Shown in pieces: positions 13,440 to 61,009 of a stretch of 64,000 nt of DNA. The notes under the pieces were generated by a model that worked only from the letters and a program-made list of their open reading frames with translations, did no database searches and was not told where the DNA came from. Position 1 is the stretch's first letter; every line of letters starts with the position of its first letter. The position numbers were made by a program, and so were the translations under genes. Source of the stretch: Raillietiella orientalis (Eukaryota); assembly GCA_036172245.1 (NCBI GenBank), contig JAYWIR010000020.1, positions 1,736,001 to 1,800,000 on the forward strand. Direction: 5' to 3'.

Positions 13440-14238
13440 ATGGGATTGTTTGGAAGCAGAGTTGAACTATCAGCAGAAGAACTGGATGAATATGAGGTAT
13501 GTCGTTCTCAGAATTATTTAGTTCAGTCAAATGCACTTTTATAGGAGCTAACGAATTTACGTAAGTGGGAGATCATAAAGTAAGAAATACTTGGGGGATG
13601 CTGCCACTTTTTCGTATTCATCATTTATAGGGCCTATGAGAAGTTTTACCATTTGTCCCCAGCAGTTGTTCGAGAAAGCCGTCAAGCATTACTACCTTAT
13701 GAATCCGTTTGCACCCTAGAAGAAATAGCATCGAATCCATTATGCCATTCAATTTGTTGTGTGAGATTGTAGGGTTTGCTGGTAGAACATTTTTGCTTTG
13801 TAGACGTTTAGTTCATCTCAGGATGGTCAGCTCAGTTTTGATGACTACTTAGACATGTTATCAGCTTTCTCGATGCATGCTCCACTGCTTCTTAAACAAG
13901 AGTATGCGTTTCGTATTTATGGTAATTTGTTAATTTTTACCATGTTGGTAAAAAATCTGTTGTTTATCAGACATGGATAAAGATGGAGTTATAGGAGAAG
14001 ATGATCTCATCCAGTTAATTAATAAGCTGATTTTCCCAGATAAAATGGACATTTCAGACATAAAGTCAGTTCTGCAAATCATTTGGAAAACAGCAGACCT
14101 AAATGAGGATGGGAAAATTTCGTCTTTGGAATTTGAGCATCTTCTTAACAGTATTCCGGAGTTCTCAGAGTAAGAAAGCATTGAGCTAAATGTTCAAAAG
14201 CTGACCAAAATATTTACAGATTGTTTAAATTTTGCTGA
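13440..14238 (+). CDS. CIB: Calcium- and integrin-binding (CIB) family EF-hand protein, 6 exons: 13440-13496, 13545-13579, 13631-13760, 13804-13921, 13971-14169, 14220-14238
   Basis: MG start (possible myristoylation), LSAEELDEYEELTNLRKWEI, NPLCHSICCTFS...DGQLSFDDYLDMLSAFS, YAFRIYDMDKDGVIGEDDL, DLNEDGKISSLEF. GT-AG introns of 43-51 nt. Confidence 0.9.
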
Positions 14239-39400: not shown

Positions 39401-40665
39401 ATACTTCAAGATCCGTATCAACGGTAGGAAGACGAATGCAATCCGATGGAGTGGGGAGTGCGGCAAGGCGGCGCCCTCGGTCCCATGCTGTTGGCCATCC
39501 ACATGGAGGCTCTGTCGTCGCTGGTAGAAAAAGACGGCCACCACCGAGGAATCCAAATTGACGACGGCAGACTCACCCACCTTACCTACGCGAATCATCT
39601 TCTGTTAGCCTTAAAAGGCGAGAAGGATCAGCATGCGTTCTTGGGTGTGCTGGAGTCGATGGAGAAAGGCATGGATCCAAGATCAACGCTCAGAAGTCCC
39701 ATCTCTTGCTCATTGGAATTCTAGACTCCTCCACAATAACAGAGCAAGGATTTTGGGTGGTTGATTAAGTGAAGTACCACCTAGGAATCCATATCAGCAA
39801 AGCCTCAGCATCGCACACTCTGTGGAGAAAAATTTTAGGAAAGACCAAGCAGTAGGCTGCGAAGTATGGCGGTGACAATGAAAATCTTGAAAAGTCTTCT
39901 ATATACCGGAAGGCAACAGACTGATGCCCTCGCCAGCGCTGCCCAGCAGCTACGAATGTCACGATGTGAGTCTGCGTGCGGTTAGAGAAACCGTATGGAG
40001 CAGCGCTTTGCCACCAGACACTCAGGATGACCCCTGGTGTTCTACGATGGTGTGGCATCCTGAGCGGTCCCAGAATCGCACGTTGGACAGGTGACAACCA
40101 AGATGAGCTCTGCAAAGCATGTGGAAACAGGGAAAACCAGCTCCACGTGCCTATCTGCCCGAGGCTGCGTCAGGATTGGACAACGCTGAAGGCCGGTGAC
40201 CGATCTGCAGACGCAGACCAACCTGGCGATCTTGGCAGGAATGCTTGAAAGGGACGCCTACGTCCCCCGATACAATTCCTTAGTTCGCACCACCATTTCC
40301 CTCTTCATCTAGAGCATCGTGATAAGAACAAAGATGACAAACACCAAGCACCAGCTATCAACATTAAGGAGTAATTAGGAGAAATAAGCATCCGGAACTG
40401 CGGCAGGATACCTGCCTGGATGTACCGCTACATCCTGAGGAAGGTGGCGTACGCTGCCCAAGCGAGGGAACTGTCCTGCAGCCCCCAGTGACCCTATCCA
40501 AAGAAAAACCTCGGTAGTGACACTACCTGTAGAAAACACTGGAAAAAAAAGGTGCGTGTGATTAGAAAGATGAAGCTGACAGAATGAGTGTGACTTAGAG
40601 AGATTGATATAACTATAAAGTTGTTGTTTTATTAAATTCATTCCTCCGCTGGTCAGACTGGGGGC
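36430..40665 (+). mobile_element. Near full-length degenerate copy of the 1-3300 L1/Tx1-like family (ORF1 plus ORF2, with an internal deletion near 39.9 kb)
   Basis: ORF1 remnant at 36480-37730. ORF2: IKIVPWNA..DVLRLQNTH, LNVYGS, VGDFN, SDHP, GPDSVP, GVRQGGALGP, LTHLTYAN, CKACGNRENQLH, GRIPAWMYRYILR. Related 3' motif at 40631-40664. Confidence 0.9.
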
Positions 40666-40837
40666 AAGGTGCTTTCAGATTTCCTGTAATTACCGCATTG
40701 GGCGCTTTTACATCTAGGGTCTTACCTGTTCTACCAAGCAAATAAAATTGGTGAGATCGGATATTATTAATATATCCATATTCTTGAGGATTAAAAAAAT
40801 TCCAAACTACAGAGTGAAATGAACTGGGAATTTATTT

Positions 40838-43800
40838 TCAAAGTATGCATTGAAGAGCAAACTTTTGCTCAATAACTTGACATAACATAAAAGGATGACT
40901 ACAATTAGAACTGTTCATTAATTTCAATTGCTCATCATTTCGCATTTTTGCTATTTCTAATTTACCAAAATCCCAATAAAATTCGGCTCCCCAGTAAAGA
41001 ATTTCGATGTAAGGTGGGAGCATACCTTTGCTCAAATCTGAGTATTTCCTAAAATACCGATCTCCGAGTTTGAAGGATTCTAATGCATCAGTGTTATAGC
41101 GTAATTGATGATAGGTTCTGCCATATAAGCAGTATGCTGACAAGTACAAAACATGGAATCCATAAGAAGAGCACATATCACAAACACAAAAATCACTGTG
41201 TGTAAAATGTTCTGGTAAGGATAATTGGGGCTGCCTTAAAATAGATGCAGTTGGACTCTTTGGATCTGGGGAGTCCTGGAAAATGTTCAGTTTTTTGGGT
41301 CTAACTTTTGTAGAAGCATTTGATGCAGGTTGCTCTTGAGTGGTCTCATTTGGTAGAATTTTAGATATTTTGCTTTTTCCTACTTTTCTTGCCGTTTTTC
41401 TCTGTGCTTGCGATTGCTTTGAGTTAAAACGTGTCCTTAACCTGTTTATAAGTGGTGTAGCGGATTTCTCGGGACTTCCAGGTACAACATCCTCACACCT
41501 TAATATCTCATTCAGGCAAATTCGTGTTTTACTGCGCAATTTAATTGCACTGGGTTTTAGTGGAGTATTTTCTTTGCAAATAAAAGATTTGTGGAAATCT
41601 GTTTGAACTGGTCCACTAAGAACATGCTGAACACCAGCCATCTTAGTTGCAGAATCCCATGCTTTATCTAATAAAAGATCACAGGAGGCTAACAATAATA
41701 AAACTTGAACAGTACGACAGGAAAGCAAATTAAGTTGTGCAAGTTCAACTTCCTGCTTGAGATAACAACGTGCTTGACGGGGAGCACCAGTTCTGTACAA
41801 CAGCATACCTAGCCACAAAGAACTTTCAAATAAAAGCCACAGAAGATGATAATGCTCCTTCCAATCTGACAGGCAGATTTTGTTTTACATTCCTAAATCT
41901 TGCCTCTTACCTTGGCAACATAATTCACCTTTCAATAAACTGCGTGCAAGTCGATGACTCTCAACTGCTAAAAATTCAGCACTAGACTGGAAGCGCAGAG
42001 GCTCAGGTAACATAGATTTCGGTAGAGTCATATACTGGCTGGCTAATAAAAGTGCTTCGCATCGTATCAGCCATTTTTTGTGAGCAGTACTGACTGACAA
42101 GCATTCCCATAAAGCTCTTACACCTTTGCTGAACTATGCAACAAATAATTTTCCTTTCAGTCACTTAGCTCACCTGATGAGTTCTATAATAAAACCAAGA
42201 CTTAGCAAGGAGCATCTGTTCTTGATTACTGTTTGTTTCCTCAATAACATTTGATGGAAACAATTTATGAGAAATCATTTTTGACATAGCTATGTAGCGA
42301 ACGATCTTTCAGTCACTTGTAAAGTAAGGTAAAACCAACCTTCTTGCTGAATGTCCCCAGATGCAACTTCGCTAAGTAGCTTCCAGCAACGAAACTCATA
42401 GGATTCCTGAGAAGATCCATGAGCAGCCAAAATCCAAGCCATATGATACAACATCTGAATGCAGAACTCCCATTCAGCACCATGCAGTTCTTTGAGAGAC
42501 AATTCCCACAGCTCCAGCGCCCTGATTAGGAAACCTAACAAATGCTGTTCTTGGTGTAAAGTAAGATGCAAGTAAGAGGGAGTAATGTGGCATTCCTCTT
42601 CCTCTTGACATTCTTCTCCAGGTGAAGGTTCTTTCTTAGTCAATGGAATAAATCGGCATTGTTCCATCTCTTCCTAAACAGCATAAACCCAGTACTCATT
42701 TTCCCCATACATTCTCATTTACTTCAGTGATTCCTTGGAACTGTAATACTTCTGCCATGTAATGCCAAAAAAGAAGAGCTGCTTTCAGATTTGAATCATT
42801 GCCGAGCTACAAGGTACTTGTTAGTACAACAGCATAATGGATGTTACATTACTTGCAATAAGTATTCTTCGCCTTTCTGAACAGAAGTCATGACTTCATT
42901 TTCTTTACTACTTTTATGGTGCCTACAATACTCAAACTGGGCCTTCCACACACATATCCATGCTTTGTCTTTGGCAGAATCCGAGCAACATTGTAATTCT
43001 TCCAAAACATTGTAAATATGAAGAGACAATTGTTCCCTACAAAATCCACTATAACATGTTGAAAAAGAATAAAAATGCTCACGGATGCTCCAAATAAAGG
43101 TGTAATTCTTTTTTTTTAATGTATATTTCTGGATGCCAGGTTTTCCCTGCTTCTCCTGATGCAAGCATTTGGTTCCACAGCATAGTAACAGTCAACACCT
43201 TTACAAAAGTTTACCACCCCTATTCTCAATCTCACTCATTAATACAGTACTTGTTCACCTCCAGCGGTTTTAAGCTGTTGCATCTTCACTTTGAGCCATT
43301 CTTCTAAAATACTGCAACAATCTGCCTGATGATAAGCTAAACACAACAGACAGCATTGTAAGGCCTTCTTCCACTCTTGAAGTTTTCGGTATATTCTAAT
43401 CAGGGGTCGAAATCTCTTCCATATATCCTGCTATTTACACCAATATTAAATTGCACTCAAGTTCTTTGCTTTCCTACTTTATTCCCACAAACTGATGATA
43501 GTAACTGCCAATTACTTAAAGCAGTGGACATGAGAAAGGCAGCTTCTTGATAGCAGGTTTGATTCATGAGGATACCTGCCAAATTGAATAACCATGCATC
43601 TGTATAAATACATTGCCGTCTGAATTATTGGAATCTTGTTGTGTATTCACCCAGATGAGAACGGCTTGTGTTGCATTCCTGACAAACTTCCTCTTTTGCT
43701 TCTTGTATTTTGGAAAACAAAAAATTCACTGCATTTTTCATCATAACAAGCAAAACTTTTTGGTGGACATCAGGTAACTTGTAATAAGTAGTACTGGCCA

Positions 43801-45272
43801 GATTGAGCAACAAATCTGCATAACAACAACCACAGAAACAATTATTTTTTCTAATTGAAGAACAATGTTCATTGCAATCCAAAAATTGCACATAACTCCA
43901 CAGTAACTCACACAAGCATATGACTGTGTCAGCCGAATTCTACAAAAACAGAAAGCAGAAATACGTCAATTTGTTTGGAATTTTCAAGAAATATCACTTA
44001 CCGCTTCGAAAGATACTTTTATTTTCGCTGTTTCTTGAAAGCAACTAATTTTTATAATCTTTTCTATGATCACACCAACAGTATCGATTAGATCATCAGT
44101 AGCAGCTACTTTCAAGTCTTTTTTTAGTTGAACAACTTTGTTGTAATCTGTCTGCATCCGAAATTTCCCATTTTTCGCATCTTGTACAGAAGAAATCAAG
44201 TTCATGAATACACAAATGGCATCTCGCCAAATCTTGGAAACATCAGCTTCTACTTCAGAAATGCAGTGTAGAACATACTGCAAAGCTTGATATATGTTTT
44301 GCAATGAATACACATAAACGTTCTGGAGAATGCATTCAAGATGGAAGTGCATAACCATATTGAAAATTGAAATATCTTTCTCAGTGAATAATGAATGACC
44401 AAGGTGGACTACCATTCTGTTGTGCAACAATGTTGTCAACTTTTTGTAGAAACCAAGAGAGTCTTCTTTCATTGTTTCGTAATTTTTGAGCAATGCACTA
44501 TAAATTTTGGATCCTTTTGTGCAACATTCCATAAATCCACTGATATCTTTTCTACTCAAAATGCTAAGAGTATAAAATGCCATGTTTTCTACAATTTCTG
44601 CTAATTCAATGCTTGTTTCCTTTTTGATTACAACGCATAGTTTATTCCATAATAAATAATAAATGGATCGAAGAATGTCTTTATCGTTATTAGTCAAGTT
44701 ATGATTGTTACAGTCTTCTATGATATCATGGATAGTTGCACATATCTTGCATGCCAAATGAAAATAGTCCTGAAAATCAGTTATCACGAAAACGAAAATG
44801 AGATATTTTATCAAAATAAATGAAATATTCATATTCACTGAAAACATAACATACTTCTTTAAATAATATTTCATTCAAGCAAATGTTGATAACACTGCTT
44901 ACTGTTTCCAAGCACAGTTTCAGCTGAGCATGCAAAACATTTAACATTAGAGTCCTCCATGACAATTTCTTGCTACCATTAGTTTTTAACCAGTGATAAA
45001 CCTTATTAGTTATTTTTTCAATCTGAATCAAACACTCTTCTGTTATGGGCTTTGTTTCAATAAACTCCAAACACATCTTCACAATCCCTGTAATTTCATT
45101 CATTGATGCATCTTTGGATAGAACAACGGACTGAAATATTTTTGAAATGTTGAATTAACAAAATCTTTCGTTGAACTAGCCTGGAACTGAGTACTACCTC
45201 TATGTGTCTATCCAACTGCACTAAGAGGCCATAATCTGCAATTGAAGTATCCTCTTTAATGATGAATTCCAT
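40838..45272 (-). CDS. ESPL1: Separase (ESPL1)-like N-terminal helical region only; multi-exon, roughly 1200 aa; no C50 protease domain seen
   Basis: Spliced exons with short GT-AG introns from MEFIIKED (45272, inferred start) to a ~1030-nt terminal exon (40838-41867). That exon carries GAPRQARCYLKQEVELAQLNLLSCR...LLLLASCDL and LPEHFTHSDFCVCDMC, matching the separase middle region. TGA is followed at once by AATAAA. Confidence 0.72.
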
Positions 45273-47595: not shown

Positions 47596-48743
47596 ATGTC
47601 AAGTGATATAAATTTAAAATCGTTTGTTTCTGAAAATGAACTGGAAGAACGACGAAAGAAGCGCCAGATGGAATGGGATAAAGTTCGTAAACCGGACGAT
47701 CCCAAAGGTTAAGTGTACCTTTATCCAAATAGCTGTTATCTGGCATTCTGACTATGATTCCAGAGGCTCCTGAAGAACCATATGATCATCGTTCTTTGTA
47801 TGAACGACTTCAGGAACAAAAAGAGAAAAAGGAAGCAGAATGGGAAGAAACGCATCGATTGAGTAAGTTCATGTGTATTTTTATGCCACAGTTTTAAATA
47901 GCCAATGGTTCCCCTTTAAACTGTACTTAACATAAATGTTCATAATTTATTTTTATTTTTTTTTTCTTAATAAACTTGAAGCACAATGCTTCAACTCTAT
48001 CTGAAGGAGTTTGACCCCAGAGAGGTTTAAGAATGGTTTCCTGCAAGTTTTTTAACTTTATTTTAAAAAAATGTAAATCAAGAAGCAAAAAGTATTCAGG
48101 GAGATAAATATAATCAGGGTTTCAAATATTCCATGAAAAACTTAAAACTTTTGTGGTGTTGCCCTAACATTCAGAGAATATGGTGCGAGGACTGGATGAC
48201 GATGAGGTTGGATTCCTTGATCTGGTGGACAAAACAAAGGCTGAATTAGAGTACAAGAAAGAACTAGAAGAAAGAAAAGCTTTGTCTGAATATCGGCAAG
48301 CAGTTGCAGAACTGCAGGAACAGGCTGCAGATGATAAGCTCCGTATTGACTTAAGCAAATCCACTACCAAACAATCAAGTAAAGAAACCGTACAGAAACA
48401 GTTACTTAAGAATGCTGTGAAAAGAAAATGTAGAGAAGGGAGTGATTGTGAGCCAAAGCAGAGTTTAGAAGGTTAGTTCTTTTCATGATTTCTGTATTGG
48501 GTCTGTGTAAATTTTTTAGCAGTCAAAGAACAAAAAATTCCTGTTGTAACCCAACTGATTATGCCTTCTGCTTTGATTTACTGTGGAATGCTCCCTGGTT
48601 TGAATGCATATTCAGACTCTTCCTCAATTGATAGTAGCCATTCTTCTTCTTCTGATAGTGATGATGGATTTAGAAATGAAGACTCACATAAGCCTATGCC
48701 TGAAAATAGAACAAAAGAGATCAAACAAGTGAATCAAGAGTAG
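47596..48743 (+). CDS. PSME3IP1: FAM192A / PSME3IP1 (NIP30), exons 47596-47707, 47764-47862, 48175-48471, 48520(or 48523)-48743
   Basis: [66 protein letters not shown]-terminal [13 protein letters not shown] acidic/Ser tract. Introns are phase-compatible. Confidence 0.95.

Positions 48744-59790: not shown

Positions 59791-61009
<1,219 letters not shown>

Follow-up and report, generated by a model that had tools for sequence, protein, structure and literature searches.

A predicted separase regulatory-subunit gene and a separate protease-only gene in a likely pentastomid genome

Results

The window, a 64,000-nucleotide stretch of DNA analysed as a whole, carries on its minus strand, at 40838..45272, a gene predicted to encode the regulatory (N-terminal) subunit of separase, the protease of chromosome separation. 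The model has 13 exons and a product of 1263 aa, and was predicted from the DNA, with the splice sites of its 12 GT-AG introns (40-85 nt) picked by eye from three-frame translations. Exons 1-5 lie at 45272-45198, 45130-44855, 44769-44002, 43939-43651 and 43599-43478, exons 6-10 at 43427-43251, 43198-43083, 43036-42853, 42806-42723 and 42673-42340, and exons 11-13 at 42289-42174, 42133-41911 and 41865-40838, all on the minus strand. With this predicted splicing the frame comprises 3792 nt and 1263 codons with no internal stop, and runs from an ATG at 45272 to a TGA at 40838-40840. An earlier description of this DNA, made without database searches (the sequence-only reading), had given the gene the same two ends and short introns, and was correct on both counts. 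Across this gene and the protease gene described below, the 18 modelled introns are very short (40-85 nt), with weakly conserved donors.

The last exon does contain both motifs by which that reading had recognized the middle region of separase. The conserved TPR-like helix motif GAPRQARCYLKQEVELAQ (residues 948-965; 41735-41788, minus strand) aligns in all seven relatives compared, and the segment that holds it, residues 923-1005, scores 81.6 bits, a value reached by none of 138 shuffles. It is followed by insert 1 (residues 1006-1140; 41210..41614, minus strand), a basic stretch of 135 aa with five S/T-P sites, which is the longest among 16 aligned rows, the other 15 having 28-106 aa; its composition and its human counterpart (PMC10317155) suggest that it is disordered. 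Insert 1 includes E-I-L-R (residues 1041-1044; 41498..41509, minus strand), one of five matches to the ExxR separase cleavage consensus in the whole subunit and the only one in the insert, by itself not significant and a motif match only. Further on, the motif LNIFQDSP (residues 1114-1121) precedes the S-P site S1125 (41252..41290, minus strand), which aligns with the cyclin-B-binding S-P of the relatives and with human S1126, where pS1126 has the role described in PMC10317155. At the end of insert 1 sits the H-x3-C-x-C-x2-C motif defined in PMC5921967 (H1144, C1148, C1150 and C1153; 41171-41200, minus strand), the cysteines of which all show a conservation of at least 90% in alignment A1. Beyond its last cysteine the protein continues for 110 residues, not the 120 or so first estimated, and after the last conserved helix only 9 residues remain to the C-terminus.

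An HMM was built from the first 1230 residues of each of seven relatives, with the query protein left out, and residues 33-1199 aligned to it collinearly (E 2.7e-58), so the claimed homology to separase holds. When segments were tested singly, five of the seven beat every scored shuffle and segment 374-510 was reached by one of 182, while residues 1-117 alone were not significant (11/177 shuffles scored as high). A full HMMER scan of 1.84 billion representatives retrieved 16 proteins at E <=0.001. Compared with 53 proteins (P0001-P0053, the taxa of most of them inferred), the spliced regulatory protein matched P0044 (E 4e-24) and the N-parts of two full-length separases, P0047 (2175 aa; E 3e-22) and P0045 (2103 aa; E 2e-18). 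Furthermore, human separase was matched by the profile of alignment A1 (E 1.7e-57), and both the cysteine motif and the S-P site before it are in register; this link is indirect because A1 includes full-length relatives. Judged from these alignments, the regulatory half is homologous, beyond chance and by way of intermediate relatives, to the N-terminal two-thirds of separase. The last exon alone did not bring up separase in Pfam (a weak TPR match only), in a phmmer search of the PDB or in a word-based search (0/1499 candidates). The Atlas yielded no more than TPR/MAU2-like look-alikes, with a low recognition score.

At the 3' end of the gene (40831..40840, minus strand), the TGA stop is followed by a lysine codon and an in-frame TAA, overlapped by an AATAAA at 40831-40836. 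The AATAAA noted earlier is thus present, but it does not follow the TGA directly, one base lying in between. A U/GU-rich stretch comes after it, and the AATAAA probably serves as the poly(A) signal, with a predicted poly(A) site near 40815. Past the double stop the minus-strand frame stays open for 72 codons (40614-40831), which was matched by 23 of 5000 shuffles. This open frame, together with the possibility that a 39-nt intron removes both stops, and with donors at 40862 (possible, score 3.5) and at 40725 (strong, 8.9, opening a 42-nt intron-like stretch), would allow the subunit one or two further short exons and a tail of about 60 residues, still without a protease domain. However, the acceptor at 40824 scores only -0.2, and codon use in the open stretch (-0.21 per codon) is below that of all 25 coding blocks, themselves scored in-sample, and inside the non-coding range. 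The final 20 codons of the stretch derive from repeat sequence, the DNA downstream gave no tail-like frame, and 170 donor-acceptor pairs near the stop gained at most 86 residues, the longest of them out of repeat sequence. Because of the weak acceptor and the non-coding-like codon use, we regard such a short extension as unlikely. A hidden tail exon past the repeat block was also sought downstream with tail-HMM and codon-use scans, and none was found.

The repeat that contributes these codons is the 3' end of a dispersed, decayed non-LTR-retrotransposon-like element (39871..40672, plus strand), convergent with the gene and outside its coding region. It has 41 matches at 67-83% identity, itself included; copies elsewhere match 39871-40525 of the window, and two reach about 40672. 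Its CCHC-type motif is one that we take to mark a LINE, and ORFs near it gave no match in Pfam. The sequence-only reading had put the end of a LINE about 170 nt downstream of the gene and had considered truncation by it. The position stands, the repeat ending some 165 nt from the stop codon, but the coding region is untouched, and truncation is unsupported because the repeat ends short of the stop, with about 165 nt of unique sequence between them. Apart from this proximity, little would suggest a gene truncated by the LINE or a decaying duplicate: the repeat does not overlap the coding region, the frame and the splice sites of 12 introns are intact, the last conserved helix is followed almost at once by the end of the protein, there is no second copy, and no protease remnant lies beyond the repeat block. 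We consider this explanation extremely improbable.

The rest of the window holds several other features. The region 15300-40670 is a GC-rich, repeat-like block of about 25 kb, with no Pfam match in the ORFs tested, and beyond it lie convergent plus-strand genes, with no protease or tail remnant. Among them, in an AT-rich block at 12742-14170 (plus strand, convergent), a Cyclin-N-like exon (Pfam E 2e-4) is followed by EF-hand-like exons recognized by eye. A reverse transcriptase fragment is found at 1089-1766, a FAM192A/Fyv6 exon at 48168-48473 and rRNA adenine dimethylase exons at 59791-60719.

No match to the protease half was obtained in the window and 10 kb on each side of it, either by tblastn with 11 relatives or by HMM on 5030 six-frame pieces, in agreement with the earlier failure to see C50 exons downstream. 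In the whole assembly the C50 protease domain PF03568 has a single site, at C15:3591481-3592030 (two matches; all three candidates scored). This site belongs to a protease-only separase gene of 7 exons with its own ATG (G000:C15:3591310-3593210; ATG 3593210, TAG 3591310), predicted to encode 540 aa, so the search for a separate protease gene proposed with the sequence-only reading located one. The catalytic dyad of the protein (H417, C443) is intact, and it matches the C-parts of the two full-length relatives, P0047 over residues 1661-2171 (E 2e-60) and P0045 (E 7e-59). With one exon of each gene as query, both halves are single-copy, at one locus each, and no intact full-length separase was found elsewhere in the assembly. 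Over the 84 kb that include the window and the 40 kb that include the C15 gene, N-part sequences match the window only and C-part sequences C15 only, with the one exception of a 38-residue match at E 0.016.

Both genes lie deep inside multi-Mb contigs, and these contigs are different. In-frame stops close the frame ahead of the C15 ATG, and 148 GT positions within 2.6 kb, each joined to the acceptor before the ATG, gave no upstream frame longer than 58 codons. The protease gene and an ETF-alpha gene on the other strand are arranged head-to-head, within some 2.3-2.9 kb of each other. Separate starts and ends for the two transcripts are supported at the DNA level, for the models as predicted. 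A full-length separase broken by misassembly, or an mRNA that gains the C15 exons through long-range or trans-splicing, might be suspected from the 25-kb repeat-rich block that follows the regulatory gene and from an in-phase acceptor-like site 26 nt before the C15 ATG. Yet the sequence around the stop codon is unique, with the repeat about 165 nt away, the genes next to each half on its own contig are unrelated, and the two-gene layout is shared by relatives, and we find either event very unlikely. The acceptor-like site itself (C15:3593237) probably belongs to a 5' UTR intron. The interval G000:C15:3595400-3601517 contains the ETF-alpha gene and, further upstream, a malate-dehydrogenase-like frame (Pfam E 0.038).

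The break between the two genes had been expected near the autocleavage region of separase, and it falls at the disordered insert 2. In the human protein insert 2 comprises aa 1278-1572 and carries the autocleavage sites R1486/R1506/R1535, a CDC6-like motif and a PP2A site (PMC10317155, PMC12609080), and the last motif cysteine is C1151 (PMC5921967). From this cysteine to insert 2 there are 127 residues in human separase, compared with 110 to the C-terminus of the regulatory subunit here. On the other side, residue 13 of the C15 protein corresponds in the alignment to residue 1623 of P0047, whose residue 1610 corresponds to residue 1578 of human separase; the C15 protein starts with the first helix after insert 2. 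Given this start and the similar lengths before the break (110 and 127 residues), the two genes cover separase minus insert 2, which, with its autocleavage sites, is absent from both predicted proteins. Jointly, two intact single-copy frames amount to separase minus insert 2, with the His/Cys pair kept. These results bear out the proposal of a two-gene separase, on two intact predicted frames. We consider it quite probable that the window holds the regulatory half only and C15 the protease, that the two proteins assemble into one enzyme, and that the split comes from an early pancrustacean ancestor.

The lineage was approached through contig C282, which looks mitochondrial. Among the best 120 of 8000 sequences scored, those nearest to its COX1 come from Armillifer (77%, 76%) and Linguatula (75%), and it groups with pentastomids at SH-aLRT 100 in a 14-row quick tree without other crustaceans. 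On this COX1 evidence the lineage is likely a pentastomid (tongue worm), and Pentastomida are placed in Pancrustacea, within Oligostraca. A trnL(taa) follows cox1 on C282 (at a relaxed threshold), an order that we take to be a mark of Pancrustacea. In C282:1-9200, moreover, trnL(taa) and cox2 are separated by a gap of about 490 bp, cox3 is followed by a cluster of tRNA genes and then nad3, and nad5 is preceded by a minus-strand trnK. The assembly has 54 COX1 matches, most of them broken and in large contigs, which suggests that mitochondrial DNA has many nuclear copies.

The C15 exon has its best matches mostly among proteases of 540-650 aa, one of which is a mealybug separin (567 aa). A careful tree of 15 rows separates C15 and six other proteases of 567-654 aa from the remaining eight rows, which hold the full-length proteins and two partial ones, at 100/99; 9 of 23 database rows were left out of this tree (7 long branches and 2 near-duplicates), and a first tree of the 23 database rows was run in quick mode only. 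The regulatory subunit groups with five N-only relatives at a support of only 80, and both halves are on long branches. These groupings fit a single split but do not prove it, because species relationships would give them too.

Discussion

Separases that consist of the N-terminal part only have been described across insect orders, together with a copepod pair of 1440 aa and 509 aa from Eurytemora (Melesse, Bembenek and Zhulin 2018, additional files 2 and 3; PMC5921967). The regulatory subunit here is like the insect and Eurytemora N-terminal proteins in having its own gene, in keeping the H-x3-CxCxxC motif and in length (1214-1725 aa for the Hymenoptera listed in that source), and a separate protease-only gene is found in both systems, of 509 aa in the copepod and 540 aa here. 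It differs in having 110 residues after the cysteine motif, compared with 377 in the copepod row, with the basic tail missing and insert 1 enlarged. The insect and copepod rows compared from PMC5921967 include no pentastomid. No paper on a pentastomid separase was found among those listed in a search of mostly non-subscription literature. Since the split as such is already published (PMC5921967), the gain is one of range and detail, not of kind: what is added is a likely pentastomid, an N-terminal subunit without the tail of 220-530 residues, and the longest insert 1. For annotators, such N-terminal genes are neither pseudogenes nor orphans, a warning that is called for because the last exon brought up no separase in Pfam, PDB or word searches.

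The flies have SSE, THR and PIM, and the split of their separase has been worded as occurring "during Drosophila evolution" (PMC4847790); the present two-gene case, from a lineage that is probably the deepest branch of Pancrustacea, corrects this wording. THR is an essential activator, and most ExxR matches are not substrates (PMC7529252). According to PMC5921967, fly THR has no CxCxxC motif and little detectable similarity to separase, and its homology has been doubted. The likeness to Three rows proposed in the sequence-only reading is accordingly a loose one. It is good as regards two genes; the subunit here keeps the motif and aligns well, unlike THR, and what it resembles is an ordinary insect or crustacean N-terminal subunit. 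With Drosophila THR, SSE and PIM the present pair would share two genes, a protease without a large N-terminal region and an expected need for the partner. Work on the fly proteins attributed to Jäger (2001/2004) and Herzig (2002) reportedly has THR cut by SSE in anaphase. The anaphase cut of THR lies in its tail, and the tail where this cut is placed is absent from the regulatory subunit here.

Human ESPL1 (PDB 7NJ1, 7NJ0) shares the helical-repeat core, the S-P site of insert 1, the cysteine motif and the His/Cys dyad (PMC10317155, PMC12609080). It is a single chain, whereas here there are two polypeptides encoded on different contigs and not in one frame, and human insert 2, including AIL3, has no counterpart in either predicted protein. 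Human autocleaved separase fragments remain attached (PMC10317155) and fly SSE binds THR (PMC4847790); because of these two precedents, the halves here may also pair non-covalently. The helices that flank insert 2 would pack together without a covalent link and form a heterodimer. Securin would hold this complex inactive, and its release at anaphase would allow the cohesin kleisin to be cut. As neither half has insert 2, the remaining cyclin/CDK-type control might reside in the enlarged insert 1, a weaker suggestion than the others. If the tail-less model is true, the gene pair is a natural test of the need for insert 2.

With regard to its origin, the split is most likely an inherited pancrustacean arrangement and not a new invention, because it has already been published for insects and a copepod (PMC5921967). 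A real split of separate origin in pentastomids, at the weak point (insert 2) where insects and copepods also have it, would agree with the differing ends of the proteins, the N-terminal subunit having a tail of 9 rather than 222-529 residues and the protease having no leader, and with insert 2 being a natural hot spot. On the other hand, every apparently complete pancrustacean-type protease retrieved (taxa mostly inferred) stands alone, the start of the mealybug protein is almost identical in position, and one origin is simpler. We judge independent fission improbable. If the inherited split arose only once, a pentastomid case would date it to the base of Pancrustacea.

A fuller account can be put forward tentatively, as a possibility well short of probable: one split in the ancestor of all Pancrustacea was followed in pentastomids by deletion of insert 2, with its control moved into an enlarged insert 1 that holds a hydrophobic-x-hydrophobic-[FY]-x-[DE] motif, present in the tails of relatives, and a candidate self-cleavage site. 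A search of mostly non-subscription literature found no paper on a single early split combined with loss or relocation of insert 2 in pentastomids. If the single ancestral split is true, the fission would be a rare genomic marker extending to Oligostraca, the lineage that branched off first, and if the loss of insert 2 is true, this would be a natural minimal separase, in which the whole autocleavage loop can be lost or relocated.

Several observations on tails and inserts bear on this account. Five apparently complete N-only relatives have 222-529 residues after the last conserved helix, compared with 9 here; P0041 also ends at that helix and looks like a partial model. Copepod-like proteases have about 60 extra leader residues, and the C15 protease has no such leader. 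A hydrophobic-x-hydrophobic-[FY]-x-[DE] motif, a pattern defined after inspection of the sequences, is found in insert 1 here; of the 15 other rows, 7 have it in the tail and one has it in insert 1. Relocation of the tail into insert 1 is a lead and not a result, because the tests were mixed. A tail HMM run over 5030 frames gave a best E-value of 0.53, and one of five pairwise comparisons of tails with insert 1 was notable (5/300 shuffles). On insert 1 itself the tail HMM beat all but 3 of 499 shuffles, and the insert 1 of one relative aligned better than the tails did (0/300 shuffles).
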